DNA of 43,056 nucleotides from an uncultured Nitrososphaerota archaeon (GTDB taxonomy: Archaea > Korarchaeota > Korarchaeia > Korarchaeales > Korarchaeaceae): contig CAZUBM010000019.1 of the NCBI GenBank assembly GCA_964618805.1, positions 1-43,056 of the forward strand. Direction: 5' to 3'. The translations under genes and the position numbers were made by a program. The notes under the pieces were generated by a model. The model had not been told where the DNA came from and made no database searches. It saw only the letters and a program-made list of their open reading frames with translations. Numbering within the stretch: the stretch's first letter is position 1; every line of letters begins with the position of its first letter. Below are positions 10,508 to 27,422 of the stretch, piece after piece.

Positions 10508-11779
10508 ATGCGAAAGCATCGTCTGCTCGTATTATTATTGCTCCTTATGAGCCTTTTAACACAGCAGACTTCGAGTTGTCCTCCAACTGGCCATCACCTC
10601 GGGGTGATAATAAGTGGTGCCTTATCTCCGGAGGAGGTATTAGCAAGGCTCCAGTTAGTTGGAATTAACGCTAGACATGAGGTAATTCAACACAAACTAA
10701 CTTCAGGTGAAGACGCTTCTTTTGAAACGGTAGTCTTCGAGTATGGCCAATGGCTTCCTACTAACCCTTTAACCGGCCAGCCTATAAGAGCTGATGCAAG
10801 GCTATACATAGGAAAAAAGAGCATGGCCCTCAAGGTTAACACTTCTCTCTCCGGATCTCCTGAACCACTTAGGAAGGCCATAGCTTTGCTATATAAGGCC
10901 AATGTGATTGATTATCTTCCGAAGCAGCAGGATTTCATTTTAACGGAGGGTAACAGAGTACCTGCAGACGTAGTTATAGCTTGGGCGAAGCAGGAGTTCG
11001 GTTATGATGTGAAGCAGCTCATTCTTAAGTGTAAGTCCTCGGGGGCAGATGTTCTAATTCCTTTTTTAATGCCCTCAAAGGAAGTCGTTGTTATAGCAAA
11101 TAATGTCGATGCTAGGCTTAGCTATTCGGTCTTAAGAGAAGCTTTAGCTTTGAAGGGTCTAAATCACTCCTTAATAAAGCCCACAGAATTCAAACAGCAC
11201 TTAGATGCTGAAATATTGATAATCCTTGGAGGTCCAGAGGCATATGAGGGCGTAGGAAATATATCCGAATTCTTCCTTTCACCCTCGGACTCGGAGTATT
11301 TGAAAAGAAAAGATAGTTCTTACATCGTTTATCTAGCTCAACCCTTGTTTGAAGGACAAAGGATATTTATTCTAGCTGGAAATGATAGATTTGACACTAA
11401 ACGAGCCGTAGAGAATTTTATAGAAGATTTTCTCGAGTGTCTATTAGAAAAAAGGCCTTCACTCAGATATGAATTTGAGACAAACCATATGCTTCCTCCA
11501 AGAAACGTTATAGTGAGAGGATATCCCTGCATGCTTTTTGTAGAAGTATTTTCGACACTAAGAACTCCTTGTTACAAGCCCATTGTGAACTTTCAAATTA
11601 AGATGAATAAAATTGAAATAAGAGTGGAGTACGTGCAGCTACCCGTTTTCTGCATCCAAGTAATAACTATGGGAGATCTAAGGATTTTCATAGAAGATCT
11701 TCTGCCAGGAAATTATGAAGTAACGATCTTCGCTCCAGAAGGAAGGTTTTTGGTGAATGTTTCGATACCGGCTTGCTAA
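10508..11779 (+). CDS. Secreted/surface protein, function unknown
   Basis: Basic-hydrophobic signal peptide MRKHRLLVLLLLLM. The IILGGPEA..GVG...LAG.DR..T module resembles S-layer/cell-wall-binding repeats. The C-terminal beta domain carries TPCY...CIQVIT. Confidence 0.55.
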   Translation: MRKHRLLVLLLLLMSLLTQQTSSCPPTGHHLGVIISGALSPEEVLARLQLVGINARHEVIQHKLTSGEDASFETVVFEYGQWLPTNPLTGQPIRADARLYIGKKSMALKVNTSLSGSPEPLRKAIALLYKANVIDYLPKQQDFILTEGNRVPADVVIAWAKQEFGYDVKQLILKCKSSGADVLIPFLMPSKEVVVIANNVDARLSYSVLREALALKGLNHSLIKPTEFKQHLDAEILIILGGPEAYEGVGNISEFFLSPSDSEYLKRKDSSYIVYLAQPLFEGQRIFILAGNDRFDTKRAVENFIEDFLECLLEKRPSLRYEFETNHMLPPRNVIVRGYPCMLFVEVFSTLRTPCYKPIVNFQIKMNKIEIRVEYVQLPVFCIQVITMGDLRIFIEDLLPGNYEVTIFAPEGRFLVNVSIPAC

Positions 11780-11790
11780 TCGGGGTTAAA

Positions 11791-12462
11791 CTATTGTAGG
11801 ATGACGGAAGGATCTGCCTCTGATATGATTTTTCCTTCTTCAATTATGTATGCTTTAGAACACACCATAGTAACCAAAAGAGCATCATGAGTCGCTATTG
11901 CTATACTCCTTCCAGAATCTCTGAGCTCTTTTAGCAGCTCCAAGATACTTTTCCTTCTCTTCCAATCCAGGTTTGCCATTGGTTCATCAAGGAGTAAATA
12001 AGAAGGCTCGACTATAAGTGCTCTGGCAAGTGCCAAGAGCTGGGCCTGACCAGCAGAAAGGGTTCTGGCATCCTTCTTGGATAGTTCTTCTATGCCTAAT
12101 TCCTTCATGAGCTTAAGTGCCCTTATTCTTGCCTCCTCTGCTGAAATACCTCTTATCCTAAGCCCAAAGATCACATTGTCTAAGACCGAACCCCTTAGGA
12201 CAATTGGATTTTCGTGAACATACACAACTTTTCTCCTAAGTTTAATTGCCTCCTTTTCTGGAAGTTTCCAAATGTTTCTACCTTCGATAAGGACTTCTCC
12301 CTTCTTTGGAGTATAGATCCCCGCCATTAATTTTAAGATGGTCGTCTTACCAGCTCCATTAGGTCCTACAAGAGCTATACATTCTTTTCCTAATGATAAG
12401 CTAGCTCCTTTAACTACTGGTTCCTTGCTGTAGCTGAAGTACACTTCTTTGAGCTTTATCAT
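11791..12462 (-). CDS. tupC: Tungstate ABC transporter ATP-binding subunit
   Basis: Walker A GPNGAGKT, signature LSAGQ and Walker B LLLDEP. It overlaps tupB by 4 bp. Confidence 0.85.
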   Translation of the reverse strand: MIKLKEVYFSYSKEPVVKGASLSLGKECIALVGPNGAGKTTILKLMAGIYTPKKGEVLIEGRNIWKLPEKEAIKLRRKVVYVHENPIVLRGSVLDNVIFGLRIRGISAEEARIRALKLMKELGIEELSKKDARTLSAGQAQLLALARALIVEPSYLLLDEPMANLDWKRRKSILELLKELRDSGRSIAIATHDALLVTMVCSKAYIIEEGKIISEADPSVILQ

Positions 12463-13097
12463 CTTTTACCACCAACCATTCTTGAGATTGCTGTTATTGA
12501 GTAAGTTATCAATAGCAGAAATCCTCCCAGTGATAGAGCAAGTCCAAATTCTCCCTTAGAGACCTCCAAGGCTATTGCTGTTGTCATGACTCTTGTGAAG
12601 CCCTTTATGTTTCCTCCTAGCATTAGAGCAACTCCTAGTTCACCTATTGCTCTGTTAAACGCGATAAGTGATGCATTCAAGAGTTTTGGAATAGTCTCCT
12701 TGATCAAAGTCGAGGAAGCCTGGTGTCTCAAAGCACCAAGAGAAATGGCAAGTTCCCAAACCTGTCTTTTCTCCCTTTCTAGTGCTTGATATGCAAAAGA
12801 TACCATAAGAGGAGTTATCAACACAGCCTGCCCAAGTGCTATGGCAAGAGGCGTGTATAGAAGCCTTAGCCCTCCTAAAGGTCCTGATCTCGAGAGCAAG
12901 AAATAAAGAGCAAGTCCAACTACAACGGTTGGAACCCCAATGAGGGCCCTAAATACATCAAGTATGAACTTCTTGCCTCTGAAATCGTCGGTCACCAGCT
13001 TGAGAGAAAGAGGGATGCCCCAAGAAGTTGCCAGTATAGCAGCCAGACCTGAGACGATTATAGACCTTGAAGCTATTTCCAGAACCTCTTTGATCAT
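12459..13097 (-). CDS. tupB: Tungstate ABC transporter permease
   Basis: P.VVVGL.LY.LLSRSGPLG, FNRAIGELG..LMLGGNI.G.TR.MTTAIALE, characteristic of TupB. Confidence 0.88.
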   Translation of the reverse strand: MIKEVLEIASRSIIVSGLAAILATSWGIPLSLKLVTDDFRGKKFILDVFRALIGVPTVVVGLALYFLLSRSGPLGGLRLLYTPLAIALGQAVLITPLMVSFAYQALEREKRQVWELAISLGALRHQASSTLIKETIPKLLNASLIAFNRAIGELGVALMLGGNIKGFTRVMTTAIALEVSKGEFGLALSLGGFLLLITYSITAISRMVGGKR

Positions 13098-13102
13098 CCT
13101 AT

Positions 13103-13990
13103 CTACCCACTAGCAAGCTGATTCCATGCTTCCCTCAAGCTACCATCTGGATCGCCGTTAGCTGGGTAAAACAGAGGGCTTCCAAATTCCGTCACCCCAT
13201 AGCTCCCTATAAAACTCTGAATCTCATCCGACAGGACGAATTGCTGGAATTTATAAGCTAACCTCTCATTAGCTCCCTTTATAACGTCAGAATTGACTAT
13301 ATAAACGCTATATACGTTCAAAAGCTCGCTTCCTTGAGTTATCAAGGGAGTCAGGTAAGATAGGTCTGAACTAAGTTTGAGGTAGGTCCCAATATCCGAT
13401 AAGGTGTAAGCCCCGTACTCATTGGCTATCATGAGGGTTTGCGCCATTCCGCTTCCTGATTCTATGTACCAATCCTTTCCAGATGGATCACGTCCAGCAA
13501 GGCTCCACAACCAAAGCTCCCTGTTATGAGTTCCTGAGTTGTCTCCTCTAGAGACGAACTTCGCACTACCAGTCTCTCCTGCTTTATAAATGGCTAGCAT
13601 GGCCTTAATTGGATCCATTCCCCTTATTCTTGCAGGATCATCCTTTGGACCTAGGATTACAAATGTGTTGTAAGCGAAGATCTCTCCGGACTTCAGAACG
13701 CCCTTTTTCAAGTACTTCTTCTCTAGATTTGGAGCATGAACGAAGACCATATCAGCATCGCCACTCTCTGCTTTTTTTAGAGCTTCTCCGCTGCCGACGG
13801 GAATGAACTCTATTATTACCTTAGGATTTCTCTCCTGAAACTTCTTTGCAAGCTCCTCCAGAAGTCCTGTGGCATACAGGCTAGTGGTTGTAGAAACTCT
13901 TAGCGTAACTGGAGCTCTTGTAACTTGCCAGACATAGGTAATAGCTATCAAGCTAAGGACCAAGACTAGAGCAAGGAATCGCTTATTCAT
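13103..13990 (-). CDS. tupA: Tungstate ABC transporter substrate-binding protein
   Basis: TupA signature STTTS, plus VHAP, FVSRGDNSGTH and Y.LSD.GT. Confidence 0.9.
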   Translation of the reverse strand: MNKRFLALVLVLSLIAITYVWQVTRAPVTLRVSTTTSLYATGLLEELAKKFQERNPKVIIEFIPVGSGEALKKAESGDADMVFVHAPNLEKKYLKKGVLKSGEIFAYNTFVILGPKDDPARIRGMDPIKAMLAIYKAGETGSAKFVSRGDNSGTHNRELWLWSLAGRDPSGKDWYIESGSGMAQTLMIANEYGAYTLSDIGTYLKLSSDLSYLTPLITQGSELLNVYSVYIVNSDVIKGANERLAYKFQQFVLSDEIQSFIGSYGVTEFGSPLFYPANGDPDGSLREAWNQLASG

Positions 13991-14902: not shown

Positions 14903-16675
14903 GTGGAGGAATTCGATTTAGTTATTAACGGCGGAACCATTATAGATGGAACTGGCTCTCCTGCTTTCAAGGGATCTGTCGGAATAAAAGGGGATAAGAT
15001 AGCTTCCATGAGATCCAAAGAACTTATAGGAGCTGAGATAATAGATGCCACAAACCTAGTGGTTGCCCCTGGTTTCATAGACGTCCATTCTCATGCTGAC
15101 AAAACACTTCCAATCTTCCCTACTGCAGATAACTACGTCATGCAGGGCATAACAACGACAGTTGGAGGTAACTGCGGCAACACGATCGCTCCAATATTCG
15201 AATGGTGGCCTCCAAATATGTTTTGGGACCTTGATATAATATACGAGCTTAGCCCATACAAGTACTACTTTGACGGCATGTTTCCGGCCGACGAGGTTAA
15301 AAAGAAGATAAAAGAACGTTACAACGTCGAGATAGATTGGGGCAACTTTAAGGAATTTCTAGATTGGTTGGAAAGTAGGAAAATATCCGTTAACCACGTT
15401 CCTCTCGTTGGTCATAACACTATAAGAGCAGAAGTCATGGGCCCAGAATGGAAGAGGGACCCAACTGAGCAAGAACTAGAGAGGATGAAAGGACTTGTAA
15501 GAGAGGCCATGGAGGCTGGTGCATTTGGCCTTTCCACAGGACTTGATTATCAGCCAGGTGTCTTCTCCAAAACCGAGGAAATAATAGAGCTGGTAAAAGT
15601 TGTAAAGAAATTTGATGGCATATATGCAACTCATTGGAGAAGGACTGGGCTTAGAAGGGAGAGGACTAGGCCCATAACGGAGAAAATAAAGGGGATAATC
15701 GAGGCAGTTGAGATATCTAGAAGAACAGGTGTCCCTGTACAGATATCTCATATAACCATTGGATATACGATAATGCCCCTCCCTCCTCCAAATCTAATTG
15801 AAGCGGCTGTTGAGGCAACTCTGAACGTGATAGATAATGCTAGGAAACAGGGAATCAAAGTATGCTTTGATGTAATTCCAAACACTACAGGAGGAACCAT
15901 GACTTCAATCTATTTAGCAAATGCGTTACTCCCTTGGCTTAAGGTTGCTGGATCAAGGGAGGGTCTGGCGAATGCGCTTAAAATGAAGGATTTCAGAGAA
16001 GAGTTGAGATCTATAATAACGGCTGGCAAATGGTGGGGGATAAACCCGATAGTTAACCCTTACTGGGCTCAAACAATAAAAGTAGTTGCTTGTAAAGTCC
16101 AGAACTGGGTTGGAAAGACCATAGATGAAATAGCTAAGCTTGAAGGCATGGATGATCTAGAAGCCTTGTTTAAGGTTCTCATGGAAGATCCAGACACGAA
16201 AATCAGAAGGCTCGGCCTGAGATCTGACGACGAAATAGCGGCATTCCTGGAGCATAAGTACTGCATGGTTGGTCTAGATACATATGCTTTTGATGATAAA
16301 TGGGAGATGAAGGGACCGCCCTTTTATCTACCTCATCCAAACACATATGGAGGAATGGCAAGGTATTTCCGGAGGTACTATAGGGAGATGAGAGTTTTAA
16401 GCTTAGTTGAAGCTATAAGACGTGTTACGAGTCTTCCAGCAAAAGTCTTTGGTCTTAAAGAGAGAGGCATTCTTAGGCCAGGTGCCTATGCCGATATCGT
16501 GGTGTTTGACCCAAATACAATAAGCGATGTTGAAGATCCCTTAGAACCAAGGAGATATCCTAAGGGGATAAAATACGTCGTCGTGAACGGCAAACTTGTA
16601 GTCAAAGAGGGAAAACACACGGGAGAAAGGCCAGGAAAAGTGTTTAGGTTTAGATCCGGATCTAAGGACTTGTAA
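14903..16675 (+). CDS. N-acyl-D-amino-acid deacylase (D-aminoacylase), amidohydrolase superfamily
   Basis: PGFIDVHSH.D, QGITT.V.GNCG, GAFGLSTGL.Y.PG, PHP..YG, G.LRPG.YADIVVFDP and VVVNG...G.HTG..PG. Confidence 0.9.
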   Translation: MEEFDLVINGGTIIDGTGSPAFKGSVGIKGDKIASMRSKELIGAEIIDATNLVVAPGFIDVHSHADKTLPIFPTADNYVMQGITTTVGGNCGNTIAPIFEWWPPNMFWDLDIIYELSPYKYYFDGMFPADEVKKKIKERYNVEIDWGNFKEFLDWLESRKISVNHVPLVGHNTIRAEVMGPEWKRDPTEQELERMKGLVREAMEAGAFGLSTGLDYQPGVFSKTEEIIELVKVVKKFDGIYATHWRRTGLRRERTRPITEKIKGIIEAVEISRRTGVPVQISHITIGYTIMPLPPPNLIEAAVEATLNVIDNARKQGIKVCFDVIPNTTGGTMTSIYLANALLPWLKVAGSREGLANALKMKDFREELRSIITAGKWWGINPIVNPYWAQTIKVVACKVQNWVGKTIDEIAKLEGMDDLEALFKVLMEDPDTKIRRLGLRSDDEIAAFLEHKYCMVGLDTYAFDDKWEMKGPPFYLPHPNTYGGMARYFRRYYREMRVLSLVEAIRRVTSLPAKVFGLKERGILRPGAYADIVVFDPNTISDVEDPLEPRRYPKGIKYVVVNGKLVVKEGKHTGERPGKVFRFRSGSKDL

Positions 16676-16728
16676 TTCAGTGAACTTAAAAACTAGCGGA
16701 TAGATTGAAAGGTGCAAGGTGTGCTCAC

Positions 16729-17487
16729 GTGTGCAGGATGGCTGCAATGATCTCGTCGGAACCCTTGAAAATAAATGCCTTAGTGGGATGGCTGTCTGAC
16801 CTTGCACTCCTTAAGAACCAGTGCGATGGCTGGGGGATATCAGCATATCAACGATCCAACCTCATATTATACTTTAGAGAATCTACTCCCATATGGGAGC
16901 GACCTACCTTACACTTCCCTAAGGCAGACATCGCCATAGTCCATGCAAGAAAGGCTTCGGAGGGATCCATAAGCTTCCTCAACTCACATCCCTTTGCAAG
17001 GCTTTATAGGGGTAGGTTCTGGTCCTTCTGCCACAACGGAAGCCTTAAGAAGGAACTTCTCAAAGTCAAAAGGGGCGAACTCAGCCTTTTGGGCGAAACA
17101 GATAGTGAGCTCCTTTTCCTTTATATATTAGAGGGAATTGAAGGCTCTAACTTGAATAAGCCGGAGGAAACTCTATCTGCTTTAAGCGAGGTTGCTGGAG
17201 AGTTGAAGGATAAGAGAGAAGAGCTTAGGCTTAGTGCAGTTAACTTCCTGCTAACCGACGGATCCTCCTTGTTCGCTTTCAGAGGAGCAAGGTTGAGGGA
17301 GGAATGGTTCACTCTCTGGGTGAGGGATTTTGAGGAGAGGCTTCTTAGAAGGGATGTGAGGGGCTCCATCATTTCGTCGGAACCTATCCCTGAGAAAACC
17401 GATGAATGGACATCCATCCCGAACTGGACCCTTGTAGGAAGATGGTTTGGGCAGAACGCTCTTATGAGGGAAGAGACTAGAGTTTGA
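16729..17487 (+). CDS. Class II (Ntn) glutamine amidotransferase, YafJ/EgtC-like
   Basis: Starting at GTG 16729 puts the catalytic Cys at position 2 (M-CRM). Other motifs: DGWG, HARKAS, NSHPF, FCHNG and GETDSE. Confidence 0.85.
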   Translation: MCRMAAMISSEPLKINALVGWLSDLALLKNQCDGWGISAYQRSNLILYFRESTPIWERPTLHFPKADIAIVHARKASEGSISFLNSHPFARLYRGRFWSFCHNGSLKKELLKVKRGELSLLGETDSELLFLYILEGIEGSNLNKPEETLSALSEVAGELKDKREELRLSAVNFLLTDGSSLFAFRGARLREEWFTLWVRDFEERLLRRDVRGSIISSEPIPEKTDEWTSIPNWTLVGRWFGQNALMREETRV

Positions 17488-17687
17488 GCATAATGTGCAC
17501 CTTCTCTGATTTTAATAATTTTTTATTGTTTGAATTTACTAATTGTTAAAGAATGGCATTGTAAAGACTCAATTTTTAAAATAAGCCAATTTTATAAACG
17601 CCCGAAAACTCACAGGGGTATATATAACACATTAGATTTTTTTATATCAAATTTAGATGATAATTGGTTAAAATCCAAAAATATTTC

Positions 17688-17702
17688 CCAAAAATTTAAA
17701 TA
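17688..17702 (+). promoter_or_regulatory. Probable archaeal BRE/TATA (A-rich stretch + TTTAAATA) for the precursor-peptide operon
   Basis: TTTAAATA at 17695-17702, about 34 nt before ATG 17736, in a very AT-rich intergenic region. Confidence 0.5.
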
Positions 17703-17735
17703 GAAAAAACCTTTCTCTGCACAATATGATGTAAA

Positions 17736-17849
17736 ATGGAAGAATGGGTAGATCCAATCATTATAGGTCAAAATTTTGAAGCAGAATGTGGTAAATGCTA
17801 TGGATGTTTTTGTTGTTTTGTAAGTTATGATGGTGTAAACCCGTATTAA
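17736..17849 (+). CDS. Putative RiPP precursor peptide, 37 aa: MEEWVDPIIIGQNFEAECGKCYGCFCCFVSYDGVNPY
   Basis: Hand-translated, ATG 17736 to TAA 17849. It has an acidic leader with a WxxP motif and a core with 5 Cys (CxxCxxCxCC). It ends 38 bp before the rSAM gene on the same strand. Confidence 0.8.
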   Translation: MEEWVDPIIIGQNFEAECGKCYGCFCCFVSYDGVNPY

Positions 17850-17887
17850 CTAGTCATTTAATCAAATAATCTGATAAATACGACAAA

Positions 17888-19324: not shown

Positions 19325-19618
19325 GTGGGCAAGAAGCTCTTGAAATGCTTGGATGTAGTGTTATCGTATCCTCTTAAGGGAAGCGCTATGAGGATTTACT
19401 TGTCTAGCGGAGAAGTCGTGCCGCTAGACAAGGTTTCGCATAAGATATGGAACCTTTGCCTTGGATTCTTAGGGAAGGAAGAGATAGTAGAGCAGGTATC
19501 CAGGGAGCTTAAAGTATCAGAGGAAACAGTTAGGAATTGTCTAAGAGGTCTTATGAGGAGAGGTCTAATAAAGGAGGTTGAGTTCTATGAAAATCCTGTT
19601 CATTACAAGCAGCTCTAG
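19325..19618 (+). CDS. Standalone PqqD-family RiPP recognition element
   Basis: LDKVSHKIWNLCLG...EEIVEQVSREL.VSEETV..CL..L.RRGLI is the wHTH PqqD pattern. It starts immediately after the rSAM stop. Confidence 0.75.
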   Translation: MGKKLLKCLDVVLSYPLKGSAMRIYLSSGEVVPLDKVSHKIWNLCLGFLGKEEIVEQVSRELKVSEETVRNCLRGLMRRGLIKEVEFYENPVHYKQL

Positions 19619-20711
19619 AACTCCAGATAACTTACATCCCTTTCAGAAATCGCTTTTACATGCTCTAGAGTCGCTTGGGATTAGAGGACCAAGGATAAAC
19701 TTAGTAAACAATCCGTCTTTCGAAGTTAAGCGCAAAAGAGGAGTAATCCCCTTCATGAAGGATAAGTTGTCCTACCTTTCGGCAATCCTTAAGGAAATCG
19801 AAAGCCTCATAAGGGAAGAAGGTGTTGAAATTATCCACTCCTTTGGCACCTATCTGGCTGGACTGTCGGCATGCTTAGCTAGATCTCTTCTGGAGGTGCA
19901 GTACGTAGTCAGCGTGGATGGAGGAAGTCACATACACGATAAGATACCTAGAGCTAGGAACCTAACCAAAGCAATACTGACAAGCGCTGCTCGAATTACA
20001 TCGCCCAGTAAAGCCCTAGCCTCAGAAATCTCAGAATTCTTCGGAATAAATCCGGATAAAATAACTGTGATACCTCCAATTATTGAGCTTGGCAAGGAAA
20101 GGTTGTCGGAGAATGAAGCGGGGGAGAAGGTAAGGGAAAAACACAAAATACCAGAAGACTCTCCACTTATACTTTCCAGCGGAACTTTCTGGTACTCTCA
20201 AGGCCTTCACCTGCTTCTCTTAGGATCTAAAAAGGTGTTGGAACGCTTTCCACACTTCAAGTTTCTCATAATAGGGGATGGTCCTTTATACCACGAGTAC
20301 TTGGCCATGATACATAGACTTAACCTTCAGGAGTCCGTAATCCTTGTTAAGGGAGCGAGCTCGGAGGAACTTTCTTGTTATTACGCTGCTTGCGATTTGT
20401 TCGTTTACGTCCCAGTTTATGAAGATTTCGCCATTCCACTGCTAAGGGCTATGGCTTTTTCTAAGCCTATAATTGCTACTAGAACTGGAAGTATCCCTGA
20501 GATAATATCAGAGGGGAAAAATGGCGTTCTAATTGATCCATATGATATTCCAGCTCTAACAGAATCGATCATTAAGCTCGTCCAAGATGAAGAGCTTAGG
20601 AAGAAGCTGTCCTTAGAAGCTAGAAGAACTGCTGAAAATTTCAACCCTAAGAATGCAGCTAAATCAATGATCAAGGTTTATGAAAGCATCTTAGCAGAAA
20701 GATGGTGGTGA
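19587..20711 (+). CDS. Glycosyltransferase family 4 (GT-B)
   Basis: MKILFI start (GGAGG at 19573-19577), IIGDGP, CDLFV.VP.YEDFAIPLLRAMAFSKPIIATRTG.IPEII.EG.NG. Confidence 0.88.
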   Translation: MKILFITSSSRTPDNLHPFQKSLLHALESLGIRGPRINLVNNPSFEVKRKRGVIPFMKDKLSYLSAILKEIESLIREEGVEIIHSFGTYLAGLSACLARSLLEVQYVVSVDGGSHIHDKIPRARNLTKAILTSAARITSPSKALASEISEFFGINPDKITVIPPIIELGKERLSENEAGEKVREKHKIPEDSPLILSSGTFWYSQGLHLLLLGSKKVLERFPHFKFLIIGDGPLYHEYLAMIHRLNLQESVILVKGASSEELSCYYAACDLFVYVPVYEDFAIPLLRAMAFSKPIIATRTGSIPEIISEGKNGVLIDPYDIPALTESIIKLVQDEELRKKLSLEARRTAENFNPKNAAKSMIKVYESILAERWW

Positions 20712-20714
20712 GGC

Positions 20715-21827
20715 TTGGAAGATCTTGTTGTGGTAAAGGATTTGGTTAAAGAGTACGAATCTTATTCGATAAAAGGAATGGTTCCAATGACTTACTTCGG
20801 CCTATATCCTCTCTTCGCAAAGCTTGGCCTAAAACTAGGGAGCTATGAGAGGACCATAGTCAGGGCCTTAGATGGGATCTCGTTTAGGGCTAAGGAAGGA
20901 AGGATCTTGGGAATACTGGGACCGAATGCATCAGGCAAGACGACCCTACTTAAGATCCTGGCTGGGTTAACTACGCCCACCAGGGGTGAAGCCTATGTAG
21001 CTGGGCTTAACGTGATTGAAGATCACGATAGACTTCCCGAGGTCGAGATGTTTGTCCCTGGGGTTGCCCTAGTCAACTTGTTTGCAAGACCTGACCTTAC
21101 GGTCGTTCAAAATCTGGAGAGGTTTGCGGAGCTAGCCGAGATTAAGAAAGAAAGGGTAGATGAGATCATATCATTGGTAGGGCTAGAGGATGCTTCAAGG
21201 AAAAGGGTTCTTGAGCTTTCTACAGGACAATTGGGTCGTCTTGCAGTAGCCTTTGGTTTACTGCGAGAGGTGAAGGTTTACTTAATGGACGAGCCCTTTG
21301 TGGGCATCTCTCCCGAGGCGAGGGAATCTTTGTTCAGCTTCATCAAGGAGCTGAACCGCGAAAGGGGGGTTACGGTGCTTTATGCAACCCATATACTGGA
21401 GGAAGCTCAAGATTTCTGCCATGAAGTTATAATCCTTCATAAAGGAAGGATTATTGCGAGAGGAGAACCAAGGGAGCTTGTTAAGAGGCTTGGGCTTAAG
21501 GAAAGCGTGGATGTTGAGGTAAAGCTTACTGAAGACCCTGATTCCCTCCTTAAGAAGGTGAGAAAGATAAAGGGCATTGAGGAAGTCTTTGTGACCGAGA
21601 TTTCTTATCAAGAATTCCCTAAGATCTCCTTTACTCTAATAACTCCCGATAGCAGAGGTGTAATCTCCGATCTCGTGGATCTTCTGATCTCAGGAAAAAA
21701 CAAGGTGATTTACATGAGGGTAAGGGAGCCAAGCCTGAGGGATGTGTACATGGCTTTAGTTAAGGAGTGGGAGGAGCCAAAGGCTCTGAAGGTTGAGACC
21801 TGCCTTATAGTAACTCCGCCGAGGTGA
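20715..21827 (+). CDS. ABC exporter ATP-binding subunit
   Basis: Walker A GPNASGKT, signature variant LSTGQ, Walker B YLMDEP, H-loop ATHIL and C-terminal EPSL.DVY. Confidence 0.88.
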   Translation: MEDLVVVKDLVKEYESYSIKGMVPMTYFGLYPLFAKLGLKLGSYERTIVRALDGISFRAKEGRILGILGPNASGKTTLLKILAGLTTPTRGEAYVAGLNVIEDHDRLPEVEMFVPGVALVNLFARPDLTVVQNLERFAELAEIKKERVDEIISLVGLEDASRKRVLELSTGQLGRLAVAFGLLREVKVYLMDEPFVGISPEARESLFSFIKELNRERGVTVLYATHILEEAQDFCHEVIILHKGRIIARGEPRELVKRLGLKESVDVEVKLTEDPDSLLKKVRKIKGIEEVFVTEISYQEFPKISFTLITPDSRGVISDLVDLLISGKNKVIYMRVREPSLRDVYMALVKEWEEPKALKVETCLIVTPPR

Positions 21828-21831
21828 TTGA

Positions 21832-22689
21832 ATGAAGGAGCTTTTTAGGATCCTTAAGATCGTGAGGCACAGGCTGAAGACCTACACGATCAGGATATAC
21901 GTTTGGTGGATAGCATATATACCCAATGAGGTAATAAGCATCGCTCTGGCTCTCTCTTCTTGGTACTACTATACTGTGTTCGTCTCCCCTGAGGAAGCTG
22001 AAGCTTACATCGGAGGATTTCTTTCATATATTATAATAGGACTTATGTTGGCCCCTCTTTTCGAGATGGCGATGAGAAGCCCAGAAGAGGTGATGAGGGG
22101 CCTTTATTGGGGTTACACCTCTCTGGGCGGGTTTAAGATACCTCGGTGGGCTTATTACTACCTAGCCGGGGCTTCTAGGGCAGACGCTTTCGTAGGATCC
22201 CTAATATTCGAGTTTCTAGTCTTTCTTGTAAGGTTAGGGATATACGCTGGGCTTGGCACGGCCATATTCGGCTTACGCTTGAGTCCTGATCCTAATTTGG
22301 GAGCAGCTTTTCTTTTCACGCTCCTGGGATTCTTGGCAAGTCTTGCAATAGGCTTCATGGTGGCGAACACGTTCTGGTTGTTCTTACACTTTAGGGAGGC
22401 TGCGCTGAATCCCTTTGTCTGGTTCCTCACTCTTTTGCCAAACGTGGTGGGAGGTGTTTACTTTCCCATCGAAATCCTCCATCCAGCTCTAAAGGCGATA
22501 GGTCGTTTGCTTCCGCATTACTACGCCTTCGATGGAGTTAGAAAAGCGCTGTTAGCTGGGAACTCGTTGGCTCAATTAAGACATTTGCTTCCTCCTTTGC
22601 TCTTTTACACAACTCTTTTGCTCCCACTAGGTATACTTAGCTTCAAATACTTCGAGAGGTACATGGTGTACAAGGCAAAGAAGATCTAA
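21832..22689 (+). CDS. ABC-2 type exporter permease
   Basis: About 6 TM segments and GGVYFPIE.L...L..I..LLP.YYA.DG.R (ABC-2 C-terminal pattern). Confidence 0.85.
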   Translation: MKELFRILKIVRHRLKTYTIRIYVWWIAYIPNEVISIALALSSWYYYTVFVSPEEAEAYIGGFLSYIIIGLMLAPLFEMAMRSPEEVMRGLYWGYTSLGGFKIPRWAYYYLAGASRADAFVGSLIFEFLVFLVRLGIYAGLGTAIFGLRLSPDPNLGAAFLFTLLGFLASLAIGFMVANTFWLFLHFREAALNPFVWFLTLLPNVVGGVYFPIEILHPALKAIGRLLPHYYAFDGVRKALLAGNSLAQLRHLLPPLLFYTTLLLPLGILSFKYFERYMVYKAKKI

Positions 22690-23086
22690 TAGCAAATGGA
22701 TTTATTAGGTTTAAGTAAAGCTCAAGTTTAGATGCATGAGCAAGAGTTGAAGAAGGAGGTAACAGACCTTCTGGTTAAGGCTGAGGACAAGGGGAAGATC
22801 GGCTCATTCAGCCATGCCTAAAGCAGGAGTCAACGCTTTGACGAAGATGTTTAAAGTCCTGCATAAGCTCAGTCTCTACAAACCACCATCAGTGGGCCAC
22901 GAAGGAAGTAGAAGAGTTCCTCAAAAGGACCGTTGGAGAATATGAAAGCCTGGAAGAAGCTATTTCTGCCCTTGAAGAACTAAGAAGAATGGTGCATGGA
23001 GTTAATGAAAGAATTAGTCAAGATAACCTTGATTACAGGACGAAGATGTTGGTGGAGTGGATGTGATAAAAAGGGTTATGAGTTAG

Positions 23087-23111
23087 AATGCACCCTAACG
23101 TAGGGTGCATT
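23087..23111. repeat. Perfect 11-bp inverted repeat AATGCACCCTA-acg-TAGGGTGCATT
   Basis: Read directly from the sequence. It lies between convergent transcription units. Confidence 0.75.
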
Positions 23112-23143
23112 AAGGGAGAATCTTTCATCAAGTTATCCTTGCC

Positions 23144-23851: not shown

Positions 23852-24616
23852 CTACTCATATTTCAAGTCCTTCTTAAGTGCTTGTAAGATCCTTTTTGTC
23901 ACTTCCTTGACTAATCTTTCGGCAAACTCCTTTGACGCAAGCCTTGGATCACCTATTCCTCCTGTAGGATATCTCTCATCGAAGTAAGTTAGGATCTTGG
24001 TTGATGGGTAGGCCTTGTCTCTAGGAGGTCCTCTGTACTCCTGCTCTCTCATCTTTTCCTCTCTTACCAACTCAGGCCTAATTAGCATAACCATGCTGGT
24101 TTCATAGAAGCCAGAATGTCCATATGGGATTTCTTTGCCATATTCTTCAATTAGGTCCCTTGCAAACTCAGTCCAGTGAACAAAGTATGTTTTCAGGCCA
24201 AGTTCTCTTTCAATTCTCAGCAATACAAGTTTAATTGCCTGTATATTCCCACCATGAAAGTTCATCACGAGTAAACGCCTGGCTCCATGTTTTTTCAGGC
24301 ATAGGGCTATTTCATAAATCAGGTTCATGTAGGTCTCGTCTTTCAGACTGATGGTCCCTGGAAAGTGAATATGGTGTTCAGAGAGGCCATATTTTAGGGT
24401 TGGAAGAACCACAAATTTTAGATCTTCTGAATTTTCTGCAAGATATTTTGTAAGAAACTCTGCTCTTATGCTATCGGTTGATAGAGGAAGGTGAAGGGAG
24501 TGCTGCTCAATACTTCCGGCTGGTAGAACCACAAAATCGGCTTCTTTAATCGCTTTACCGGCTTCTTCTGAGGTCATCTCCTCAAGAAGAACTTTTCGGT
24601 CCATGAGAGAGACCAT
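23852..24616 (-). CDS. Creatininase/MftE-family amidohydrolase
   Basis: LP.GSIEQH..HLPL.TD, S.HH..FPGTISL, N.HGGN, HSG.YETS and G..GDP..AS.E. Confidence 0.88.
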   Translation of the reverse strand: MVSLMDRKVLLEEMTSEEAGKAIKEADFVVLPAGSIEQHSLHLPLSTDSIRAEFLTKYLAENSEDLKFVVLPTLKYGLSEHHIHFPGTISLKDETYMNLIYEIALCLKKHGARRLLVMNFHGGNIQAIKLVLLRIERELGLKTYFVHWTEFARDLIEEYGKEIPYGHSGFYETSMVMLIRPELVREEKMREQEYRGPPRDKAYPSTKILTYFDERYPTGGIGDPRLASKEFAERLVKEVTKRILQALKKDLKYE

Positions 24617-26213: not shown

Positions 26214-27422
26214 CTAGTAAAGAAGATAGTCCTGTCTTTCCATCTGGAACTCCTCAGAGGAAATCTTCGCTTCATCATAAAGCTCAAACGGGTCAGATCC
26301 TTCTTGAAGGGCTTTCCTAACCTTATCGGTGCCAGCAAGGCAGTCGAAATAGTATCCTCCTTTAGGTCTTCTCATCCACTCAAACTTATCCGGGTTCTCG
26401 CTCATTACCTCACTTAACAAACAAAGAGCTACTAGAAACGGTTTAAAGGTTTCTCTATCTGTTATATGCAATTGAACGCCTCTACACTCCTTTCCAGTGT
26501 ATTTAGAGAAGGTAGGCACAAATCTTGCCTCTCTGAAGAGCACTCCCTCTAGGTCAAGGTCTCTAAGCCTATTGACCAATTCCCTCCCATCTATCCAAGG
26601 AGCTCCTACTATTTCAAATGGTCTAGTTGTTCCTCTTCCTTCGGAAATGTTAGTTCCTTCGAGAAGAACCATTCCAGAGTACACCAAAGCTGTGTCCAAA
26701 GTAGGAATGTTTGGAGACGGCAGGACCCATGGAAGTCCTGTTTGATCAAACCACATACTCCTTTCCCAGCCCTTCATAGTTACAACCCTTAGATCGGCTC
26801 CTATTCCATGCTTTTCGTTGAAGAACAAAGCTAGCTCTCCAATAGTCATTCCATGCCTCATAGCTACAGGTAGCATGCCCACAAATGACCTAAACTTCAT
26901 GTCAAGGACATAGCCCTCAACCTTCAAGCCATTAATTGGGTTTGGCCTATCTAGAACTATGTAAAGCTTGTCAAGCTTTGCTGAGGCTTCCATGCTTAAA
27001 GCCATAGTCCATATATAGGTGTAAACTCTAGTTCCAACGTCCTGAACATCAAATATAAGAGCCTCCACGTCTTCCAAACTCTCTGTTAGAGGAGCTCTGG
27101 CTTCTTTAGCCAGAATCGAGTCTACCACATACTCTGGCCCCTTTGCTTGACCAACTGGCCTATAAAGGCTTTTTATGGGAACACCTGTCTCTTCATCAAA
27201 TTCATCTTCTACATATTCACCCGCCTGCAAAGATCCCCAAAAGCCGTGTTCTGGTGCAAAGATTGCGACTAGATCAACGTTTGCTCTTGAAACCAGCAGG
27301 TCCTTTAAATGAACGAGTTTAGAATTAACTGCCGTATAGTTCGTAATGATACCTACCTTCATGCCCTCAATCAGGTTTATTTCCTTCTGAAAGAAGACCT
27401 CCAGACCTGTCTTAACCTTCAT
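26214..27422 (-). CDS. namZ: Exo-beta-N-acetylmuramidase NamZ (DUF1343/YbbC family)
   Basis: FAPEHGF.G, FDVQDVGTRVYTY, LDRPNPI, RHGMTIGELA, PSPNIP and EGTN.SEGRGTTRPFE..GAP. Confidence 0.9.
   Translation of the reverse strand: MKVKTGLEVFFQKEINLIEGMKVGIITNYTAVNSKLVHLKDLLVSRANVDLVAIFAPEHGFWGSLQAGEYVEDEFDEETGVPIKSLYRPVGQAKGPEYVVDSILAKEARAPLTESLEDVEALIFDVQDVGTRVYTYIWTMALSMEASAKLDKLYIVLDRPNPINGLKVEGYVLDMKFRSFVGMLPVAMRHGMTIGELALFFNEKHGIGADLRVVTMKGWERSMWFDQTGLPWVLPSPNIPTLDTALVYSGMVLLEGTNISEGRGTTRPFEIVGAPWIDGRELVNRLRDLDLEGVLFREARFVPTFSKYTGKECRGVQLHITDRETFKPFLVALCLLSEVMSENPDKFEWMRRPKGGYYFDCLAGTDKVRKALQEGSDPFELYDEAKISSEEFQMERQDYLLY

Follow-up and report, generated by a model that had tools for sequence, protein, structure and literature searches.

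A small, uncalled peptide gene probably encodes the precursor of a cross-linked and glycosylated archaeal peptide

The open reading frame (ORF) at positions 17736–17849 (+) of contig CAZUBM010000019.1 (assembly GCA_964618805.1, uncultured archaeon; the whole stretch of 43,056 nucleotides is called the window here) is a genuine precursor gene of an archaeal pathway for a peptide made by the ribosome and modified after translation (RiPP); the pathway probably includes cross-linking, glycosylation, and export. It heads a same-strand operon with short gaps, in which it is followed by genes for a radical S-adenosylmethionine (rSAM) enzyme with a PqqD and a SPASM domain, a stand-alone PqqD-like protein (RRE2, for RiPP recognition element, RRE), a family 4 glycosyltransferase (GT4), an ATP-binding cassette (ABC) ATPase, and an ABC-2 permease (Table 1). 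In the proposed pathway, the W-x-x-P-x-I motif of the leader (residues 4–9) would dock as a strand in the N-terminal winged-helix RRE of the rSAM enzyme, with W4 and P7 as the contacts, and the same leader would probably also dock in the stand-alone RRE2 before GT4. The rSAM enzyme would cross-link the core, which is rich in Cys and aromatic residues, most likely by thioethers of the sactionine or ranthionine type, which link a Cys sulfur to a carbon in a residue nearby. RRE2 would present the leader to GT4, which would add a sugar to the peptide, and the ABC-2 pair would export the product or protect the producer. Expression, the type of cross-link, peptide glycosylation, leader cleavage, and activity are what we infer here.

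The composition given in the original prediction, an acidic, Cys-free N-terminal half of 17 amino acids (aa) and a C-terminal half with five Cys, three Tyr, and two Phe, agrees with the sequence in every count. Residues 1–17 contain no Cys, no basic, and five acidic residues (E2, E3, D6, E15, and E17), and I8, I9, and I10 come directly after W4-x-x-P7; PqqA carries a similar N-terminal W-x-x-P. The Cys residues at positions 18, 21, 24, 26, and 27 form the core pattern CxxCxxCxCC, in which C18, C21, C24, and C27 can be read directly as a regular CxxCxxCxxC series. The C-terminus is GVNPY. No candidate for a second precursor copy was present in positions 17488–17887 or 22690–23143 of the window.

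The evidence for a genuine gene comes from its conservation next to related rSAM genes. When metagenome contigs were scanned with a profile, 11 family loci were obtained (L102 to L112, 43% to 54% identity; the 69 other loci kept had at most 36%), and four further family loci (L187 to L190) came from genomes. Upstream DNA was present for seven of the 11 metagenomic loci, and six of these (L102, L103, L106, L107, L108, and L112) carry a small ORF on the same strand, which ends 9 to 155 nt before the rSAM gene and encodes a peptide with W-x-x-P near the N-terminus and a Cys-rich tail. Three of the four genomic loci (L187, L188, and L189) also carry such an ORF. An intact peptide ORF is found in 9 of the 11 family loci with upstream DNA, which yields nine distinct peptides including that of the window (the peptides of L112 and L107 are identical). 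Trp and Pro are the sole invariant columns of the alignment and occur in all nine (WVDPIII in the window, WVAPKII in L102, WVTPKIS in L103, WVAPKIM in L107, WVKPIYS in L189, WEDPQII in L188, WETPLII in L106, WGKPIAI in L108, and WVKPLAF in L187), so W-x-x-P, the absence of which from homologous loci had been named beforehand as a reason to reject the prediction, is conserved. The Trp is located at residue 4 to 12, and the first Cys follows 8 to 13 residues after the Pro in each of the nine peptides.

As a control, the region 5′ of the rSAM gene was scanned for the pattern [W/Y]xxPx-hydrophobic-x followed by at least three Cys in 140 loci with at least 200 nt of upstream DNA. The pattern was found in only 2 of 133 non-family loci (L077 and L085) versus six of seven family loci, and the claim that the ORF encodes a precursor peptide is upheld by this difference and by the occurrence of the ORF across the family. 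The peptide genes vary in GC content from 33% to 48%. For L103 and L107, the proportion of differences was 0.95 at synonymous sites (pS, saturated) and 0.28 at nonsynonymous sites (pN), which is what constraint at the protein level would predict, for a single short pair of 29 codons. The pair L102 and L107 (pS 0.86, pN 0.57) was not used, since the ungapped alignment is out of register in the core. One genomic locus, L190, retains only a W-R-L-P remnant straight after a stop codon, with no start codon and two Cys. It belongs to a decayed copy of the cluster (L190/L194, G267:C1:501405-509500, in a one-contig genome), in which the rSAM gene is in three pieces with in-frame stops and the ABC genes are intact. 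In L077, one of the two non-family loci with the pattern, the ORF (L077:736-945 (+)) encodes 69 aa with Y-E-P-P-K-V-F near the N-terminus and a Gly/Cys-rich tail, upstream of the gene of an unrelated bacterial rSAM/SPASM enzyme of 26% identity from a metagenome-assembled genome (MAG) of Eubacteriales. It had no Pfam or NCBIfam match and is probably another uncalled precursor of the RRE type.

For the rSAM enzyme, 8000 candidates from a database of 5.8 billion proteins were scored; 265 had E ≤ 1e-30, and the best 120 of those were considered. Among the matches listed, nine are full-length relatives with 41% to 59% identity and at least 87% coverage; the next-best matches, generic rSAM-SPASM or MftC-like proteins, reach at most 33% identity over 72% of the length. 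The 90% clusters of the nine relatives hold 63 member sequences, and the organism names among them are all archaeal (Thermofilum pendens, Infirmifilum sp. NZ, and 'Thermoproteota archaeon' MAGs; the Infirmifilum sp. NZ members are fragments of 222 and 108 aa). Some of the source names are generic labels (for example, 'radical SAM protein with 4Fe4S-binding SPASM domain'), and 'PqqD family peptide modification chaperone' occurs as an annotation beside the organism names. As judged from these matches, the enzyme belongs to a small, sharply bounded archaeal family. The motif C134-x3-C138-x2-C141 is invariant in the ten aligned sequences, together with C361, C379, C388, C421, C424, C428, C432, and C450. 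This is the canonical framework of a CxxxCxxC motif and SPASM auxiliary-cluster cysteines expected of sactipeptide and ranthipeptide maturases. Two more PqqD-rSAM-SPASM paralogues are encoded in the same genome (G000:C1:81390-82559 (-), 32% identity, and G000:C9:25733-26989 (-), 26% identity), and their counterparts are present in many relatives; neither a W-x-x-P nor a Cys-rich small ORF was seen 5′ of these two genes.

The two RREs assigned to the cluster in the original prediction are both present. Pfam PqqD matches the rSAM-fused domain with 33.6 bits and the stand-alone protein with 28.7 bits (cut-off 23.4). The AlphaFold2 model of RRE2 (pLDDT, the predicted score in the local distance difference test, 82.9) shows four strands, three helices, and a final strand, and its best PDB matches are structures of TbiB1 with TbiA leader peptides (5V1V; E 2.7e-4 to 1.3e-3, 26% to 28% identity), followed by the RRE domains of TruD, TbtB, a lasso B1 protein, PqqD, MibB, and others. 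Because the RRE2 profile aligns with residues 31–96 of the rSAM enzyme with a probability of 91.8% and 19% identity, the two domains are regarded as RREs that are only distantly related to each other.

The leader motif is in accordance with published recognition sequences, as far as the cited sections of these papers describe them. Discrete RREs of lasso peptides and LPPs bind a [Y/W]xxPx[L/V/I/F/A] motif in a hydrophobic cleft, where mutations of Y and P weaken binding and the choice of W or Y sets the specificity (PMC13381572). The sactipeptide precursor StsA has a WxxP recognition sequence (W-15, V-14, K-13, P-12), to which the discrete RRE StsC binds, and its variants W(-15)A/V(-14)A and K(-13)A/P(-12)A lose retention on StsC (PMC12710340). 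The earlier assignment of (W/Y)xxP plus hydrophobic residues as an RRE-binding motif is consistent with both.

Binding of the leader was modelled with three chains (rSAM residues 1–112, RRE2, and the peptide as partner), using shallow alignments, a set-up that differs from that of the calibration. The model scored 0.69 versus 0.01 for the best of three controls, a mark reached in the calibration by 58 of 80 solved complexes and by 2 of 110 mismatched pairs. The runs share at least 54% of the contacts, and the pLDDT of the partner is at least 43. In the predicted interface, peptide residues 1–12 face residues 22–87 of the rSAM enzyme, with W4 next to Y69 and P7 next to residues 44, 45, 48, 79, and 83; of these contact residues, N42, I48, and Y69 hardly vary among family members. 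Since RRE–leader complexes are in the PDB, such a result indicates likeness to these complexes rather than binding. Of the leader complexes originally suggested for modelling, the one with the rSAM-fused RRE was obtained in this predicted form, and no confident contact was named for RRE2.

The cores downstream of the motif are more variable than the leaders. They comprise 15 to 44 aa with three to seven Cys, three to eight aromatic residues, and at least one Ser or Thr each. The Cys spacing in the original prediction was conserved only in part: CxxCxxC occurs in four of the nine peptides (window, L102, L103, and L107), and the other five are spaced otherwise. In L189, a further Cys precedes C-x3-C-x2-C; the four Cys of L188 are spaced by 4; and L106 with seven Cys as well as L108 and L187 with six each have spacings of 3 to 6. 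The pattern is a feature of a subgroup and not a family signature, as far as the aligned peptides tell. In this subgroup, C21-x2-C24-x2-C27 of the window followed by F28 and Y31 aligns with CxxCxxC-[F/Y/S]-x-x-[Y/F] of L102, L103, and L107; the conserved triad is C21/C24/C27, not C18/C21/C24, and C18 and C26 are extras. One of the residues F, Y, W, and H stands at position −2 of 18 of the 41 Cys and at −1 or −2 of 25; in L106, all seven Cys have one at −2. The distribution suggests an 'aromatic-x-Cys' unit of modification. A conserved recognition sequence combined with a variable core across homologous clusters is what is expected of RRE-dependent RiPP precursors.

The gene set was compared by tblastn and all-against-all searches in nine sources. 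The order rSAM, RRE2, GT4, ABC ATPase, permease of the window is also found in L102, L103, L104, L107, and L109. In L108, L110, and the genomes G100 (L187 and L191) and G172 (L188 and L192), the order is rSAM, ABC, permease, RRE2, GT4 up to the contig ends; L106 has rSAM, RRE2, and GT4, and the exporter does not follow downstream. In L104, the matches to the ABC ATPase and the permease (L104:2765-4732) are each split in two, possibly by frameshifts or assembly errors, on a contig that otherwise resembles L103. Apart from antisense shadow ORFs, which occur where the loci are GC-rich, and a trio of transporter genes that the window has in common with L103, no other gene recurs among the nine sources. 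RRE2 is located directly 5′ of GT4 in all 11 loci in which either gene is seen (window, L102, L103, L104, L106, L107, L108, L109, L111, G100, and G172; the assignment of L111 is based on the tail after RRE2, which matches the N-terminus of the L109 GT4), and this adjacency holds where the order is rearranged (L108, G100, and G172). In the one-contig genome G291, which has an intact peptide, rSAM, ABC, and permease gene, and in the decayed cluster of G267, both RRE2 and GT4 are absent from the 3.5 to 4.5 kb downstream. Because the two genes are adjacent in all 11 loci and missing together in G291 and G267, they are considered a single accessory module.

Several observations weigh against a pathway of this kind or against parts of it. 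The spread of the rSAM family is patchy: among 43 genomes from the window's phylum, it is present only in the window's own (E ≤ 1e-70), and in the phylum of G052, labelled Bathyarchaeota, 4 of the 401 genomes sampled carry it (E ≤ 1e-100). No ortholog was detected in 40 relatives or in the other genomes among the 43 (best match 35% identity, core only), and a single-protein scan of genome contigs with the rSAM sequence returned only generic rSAM-SPASM loci with at most 33% identity. L105 has the rSAM gene and no peptide ORF in the 700 nt upstream, because the matching stretch is replaced by unrelated sequence. The Cys spacing differs across the family, no protease gene recurs among the nine sources, and the residues before the first Cys of the aligned peptides share no common cleavage motif. 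The complex model was run with shallow alignments of its own and with three chains, in a manner different from its calibration, and RRE–leader complexes had already been solved; the lack of a named contact between peptide and RRE2 is not evidence of absence. In a search for longer proteins, no RRE2–glycosyltransferase fusion was found among 8000 candidates, which is weak evidence. The closest relatives of GT4, BshA and MshA, act on small molecules. The NCBIfam scores of the rSAM enzyme are highest with MftC-, NirJ/Ahb-, and PqqE-type enzymes (129 to 167 bits) and lower with sactisynthases, all far under the cut-offs.

In detail, the rSAM enzyme scores 167.2 bits with MftC (cut-off 265), followed by NirJ2 (152), AhbD (151), WgkB (132), GeoRSP (129), and PqqE (128), and for the named sactisynthases, the scores are 106.2 bits with StsB (NF045574, cut-off 625), 101 with AlbA, and 85 with SkfB. 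Thioether formation is not predicted by homology, since all these scores are far under the cut-offs. None of the five downstream proteins reaches a curated NCBIfam cut-off. The closest solved structures to the rSAM enzyme by sequence are SkfB (E 2.8e-23), PqqE (4.7e-18), CteB (2e-12), and SuiB (8.4e-10), which are the only RiPP maturases among nine PDB sequences matched at E ≤ 1e-5. Because rSAM homology does not favour sactisynthases over enzymes forming C–C bonds, we retain as an unlikely alternative that the precursor is genuine and that the enzyme makes C–C or aryl cross-links on aromatic residues in the manner of cyclophane/triceptide enzymes, PqqE, or MftC, with the Cys free for metal binding, disulfides, or S-glycosylation. 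Its best family scores are with MftC, PqqE, and WgkB-type enzymes, the cores are rich in aromatic residues and more than half of their Cys have one nearby, and a tungstate-type ABC importer is encoded near the cluster of the window and directly beside that of L103. CxxCxxC is also a common metal-ligand spacing. Against this stand the Cys as the one feature common to all nine cores, and the sactisynthase SkfB as the closest solved structure. So far, the Cys-rich cores encoded next to RRE-rSAM-SPASM enzymes have turned out to be substrates for thioether formation, among them CrpA of the archaeal CrpA/CrpC pair, according to the sections of the source cited (PMC13692751), and thioethers are thus regarded as the most likely cross-link, given that Cys is common to all cores.

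Glycosylation of the peptide might be replaced by a different role of the module: GT4 and RRE2 could serve another substrate (a small molecule, a lipid, or a surface glycan) or self-protection, and the product would then be an unglycosylated cross-linked peptide. We consider this rather improbable. The closest solved structure to GT4 is BshA (5D00, E 2e-23), and the similarity to the small-molecule enzymes BshA and MshA, which fits such a role, hints at a donor of the UDP-N-acetylhexosamine type. G291 keeps peptide, rSAM, and ABC genes with RRE2 and GT4 absent from the next 4.5 kb, and the missing fusion protein and the missing RRE2 contact, with the limits given above, point in the same direction. 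RRE2, however, has a peptide-binding fold with leader-bound B1 proteins as its best matches, and it moves together with GT4 on rearrangement. In addition, RREs fused to glycosyltransferases of another family (PF00535) are reported in the cited part of PMC12710340. TIGR04157, a glycosyltransferase family tied to rSAM peptide systems, matches GT4 weakly (71.8 bits, cut-off 400).

Far less probable is that the peptide gives rise to a redox cofactor, such as mycofactocin or pyrroloquinoline quinone (PQQ) are, and not to an exported peptide. The mycofactocin genes MftA, B, C, and F encode a small peptide, a stand-alone RRE, an rSAM/SPASM enzyme, and a glycosyltransferase, a set that the cluster resembles; moreover, MftC is the top NCBIfam match of the rSAM enzyme, the window peptide ends with GVNPY, and a creatininase-family gene lies 1.2 kb downstream. 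The MftC score remains well below its cut-off, however, the creatininase-family protein scores 103 versus the MftE cut-off of 172 and is absent from other loci, and the C-termini are not conserved, with no Val-Tyr kept at the end. The peptides match no MftA or PqqA model, no MftD or MftE is part of the conserved set, and this set includes an ABC-2 exporter. A chance ORF in an intergenic promoter region, with the true rSAM substrate encoded elsewhere, is scarcely credible and already contradicted by the conservation data: the ORF is short, lacks a Shine–Dalgarno-like sequence and any resembling database protein, and is missing in L105, but 9 of 11 loci, the peptide genes of which range from 33% to 48% GC, share its position and strand, the N-terminal motif, and the Cys-rich tail, the control pattern is rare, pN is far under pS, and the complex model exceeds its controls.

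The peptides had escaped annotation. An exact look-up of six peptides (seven entries, with two alternative starts for L106) in a collection of 15 billion proteins found none of them, and a profile of the six matched no protein at E ≤ 0.001 among 1.84 billion representatives. The gene callers therefore missed the whole peptide family, and the original description of the ORF as unannotated is borne out indirectly. The window peptide matched no NCBIfam family at E ≤ 0.1 and no Pfam family at E ≤ 10, and five relatives gave only chance-level matches to Pfam and NCBIfam, all under the cut-offs. The comparison with Cys-rich precursor families such as SCIFF, which had been proposed, ended without a hidden Markov model match in either collection. 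A search of the ESM Atlas was set aside as a lead and not as evidence (recognition 1814, under the informative level; best scores 0.89 to unnamed clusters and 0.80 to 0.82 to bacteriocin clusters of the CLI_3235 type). No description of the peptide family or of an archaeal RiPP cluster with rSAM and GT4 was found in open-access papers and bioRxiv, supplementary tables of biosynthetic gene clusters aside.

Known systems share single features with the cluster. Glycocins (sublancin, glycocin F) are alike in concept, as a ribosomal peptide rich in Cys carries a sugar; their transferases are SunS-like GT2 S-glycosyltransferases in systems without an rSAM enzyme, whereas the transferase of the window is a GT4 (Glycos_transf_1) with an rSAM enzyme present. 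The Bacteroidetes 'glyco_rSAM_CFB' system, described in silico and uncharacterised, uses GG-type leaders; the likeness here is the weak TIGR04157 match of GT4 below the cut-off. The domain order RRE, rSAM, SPASM is that of CteB (5WGG/5WHY), SkfB (6EFN), SuiB (5V1T), and PqqE (6C8V), to which sequence similarity is low and whose precursors are unrelated. We know of no GT4 or second RRE in these four systems. Streptosactin (StsA/StsB/StsC) is alike in its W-x-x-P leader read by a discrete RRE (PMC12710340), its Cys core, and an rSAM/SPASM enzyme with an N-terminal extension, but the window's rSAM enzyme is far below the StsB cut-off, the host is archaeal, the peptides match no model, and the cluster adds a second, fused RRE, GT4, and an ABC-2 exporter. 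With the lasso B1 proteins (TbiB1, PbaB1, TfuB1/FusB1), the cluster shares the RRE2 fold and a leader that fits the consensus given in the cited part of PMC13381572. In contrast to lasso peptide clusters, the conserved genes include no Asn-synthetase-like cyclase or B2 protease, the Pfam domains of which were not found in the cluster of the window, and tailoring would be done by rSAM/SPASM and GT4. The Crp system of Methanococcus voltae is the archaeal counterpart, in which the RRE-rSAM-SPASM enzyme CrpC installs thioethers on the adjacently encoded Cys-rich CrpA (PMC13692751). It differs in that CrpA is a protein of 28.8 kDa with ten repeats, compared to 37 aa here, that CrpC belongs to TIGR04463, and that the cited sections describe no glycosyltransferase or exporter. 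By these comparisons, the cluster is not a member of the StsB, MftC, SCIFF-type, lasso, or glycocin families, since it lacks a defining feature of each. In mechanism, it comes closest to the RRE-dependent rSAM RiPPs, with a streptosactin-like leader plus discrete RRE, a CteB/SkfB-like architecture, and a reader of the lasso B1 type. New are the archaeal, thermophile-centred family, the uncalled precursors, the two RREs for one leader, and the tie of a GT4 to an RRE.

A wider reading, put forward tentatively and open to considerable doubt, is that the cluster founds a class of RiPPs specific to Archaea, namely peptides of thermophiles that are glycosylated and cross-linked by radical SAM enzymes. 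One short W-x-x-P leader would be read in turn by two RREs, the lasso-B1-like RRE2 would recruit the substrate for GT4, and aromatic-x-Cys, present up to seven times in L106, would be the unit of modification. If this were true, no GT4 before it would have been guided by an RRE in RiPP biosynthesis, and Archaea would have their first small peptide natural product made by an rSAM enzyme. Archaeal RiPP clusters are widely predicted and have almost no characterised products, according to the cited part of PMC12144867, and the sole archaeal example of rSAM thioether formation that was found, in the sections of PMC13692751 considered, acts on a large protein. The cluster is the sort that RiPP genome mining is expected to yield. 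It adds a testable substrate for a delimited archaeal rSAM family, with exact peptide genes, a conserved motif for recognition, and a minimal set of genes with which the pathway could be reconstituted in a heterologous host. If GT4 acts through RRE2, RRE-guided tailoring would be extended to a new enzyme class, with thermostable parts for peptide engineering. Even databases of 15 billion proteins do not contain the precursors, which have 37 to 60 codons and therefore escape any search that takes protein collections as its starting point. The main points of interpretation in the original prediction are supported; the leader cleavage site near FEAE/C and the sugar-acceptor residues it named are guesses.

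Table 1. Features of the putative precursor gene and of the genes following it in the window
Feature	Position	Strand	Remarks
Precursor peptide gene	17736..17849	+	ATG start, 37 codons plus stop; translates to MEEWVDPIIIGQNFEAECGKCYGCFCCFVSYDGVNPY
Leader part, residues 1–17	17736..17786	+	Acidic, Cys-free; leader/core boundary putative
Predicted RRE recognition motif W4-V-D-P7-I-I	17745..17762	+	Based on W/P invariance and modelled interface with the rSAM RRE
Core part, residues 18–37	17787..17846	+	5 Cys, 3 Tyr, 2 Phe, 1 Ser
TATA-box-like element TTTAAATA	17695..17702	+	33 nt 5′ of ATG; putative function
RRE-fused radical SAM/SPASM peptide maturase, 478 aa	17888..19324	+	Pfam: PqqD 29–93, Radical_SAM 129–266, SPASM 361–424
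Stand-alone RRE (RRE2), 97 aa, PqqD-like winged helix	19325..19618	+	Pfam PqqD and fold matches
GT4 glycosyltransferase (GT-B fold, group 1), 377 aa from TTG start	19578..20711	+	Glycos_transf_1, E 1.8e-36
ABC transporter ATPase, DrrA-like	20715..21827	+	34–53% identity across family loci
ABC-2 type permease	21832..22689	+	Kept in family loci

The start of the GT4 gene overlaps the end of the RRE2 gene (Table 1). The element TTTAAATA is a possible archaeal promoter, which would give a very short 5′ untranslated region, and TATA-like boxes are also located 5′ of the peptide ORFs of L102 and L106. GGTGA is found just 5′ of the ATG in L106, L108, and L187; no Shine–Dalgarno-like sequence precedes the window ORF. 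The GC content across the cluster is unremarkable (0.38 to 0.47 in 1-kb windows). The genome is archaeal by its small-subunit (SSU) rRNA fragment, for which the archaeal model won in the clan competition of Rfam with 745.5 bits; this competition was used because the archaeal SSU model scores in bacteria as well.

Genes for creatininase-family, GNAT, GATase_4, and amidohydrolase proteins were rejected as cluster members, as they have no counterpart in L102 to L112 and L187 to L194. Directly upstream of the precursor gene (14903–17487 (+)) are the genes of a 590-aa amidohydrolase and of a protein that resembles class-II glutamine amidotransferases, neither of which recurs in the other loci; the latter protein is EgtC-like (54 bits, cut-off 218). 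The gene of the creatininase-family protein (23852–24616 (-); 112.9 bits with a cut-off of 235 for creatininase, 103.2 bits with a cut-off of 172 for MftE) was not counted in the cluster because it is absent from the other loci. A 423-aa ORF at 10508–11779 (+) had no Pfam match at E ≤ 0.001 and no NCBIfam match at E ≤ 1e-5. Positions 11791–13990 (-) encode a three-gene ABC importer with a TupA-like binding protein (165 bits, cut-off 400), a permease, and an ATPase, and a homologous trio is found directly 5′ of the precursor gene in L103 (2120–4403 (+)); this could be due to chance or to a common ancestry of the neighbourhood, or could hint at a connection with metal. The protein encoded at 26214–27422 (-) contains both domains of NamZ, an exo-beta-N-acetylmuramidase (E 3e-79 and 3e-52), which is unexpected because the organism is an archaeon without murein.

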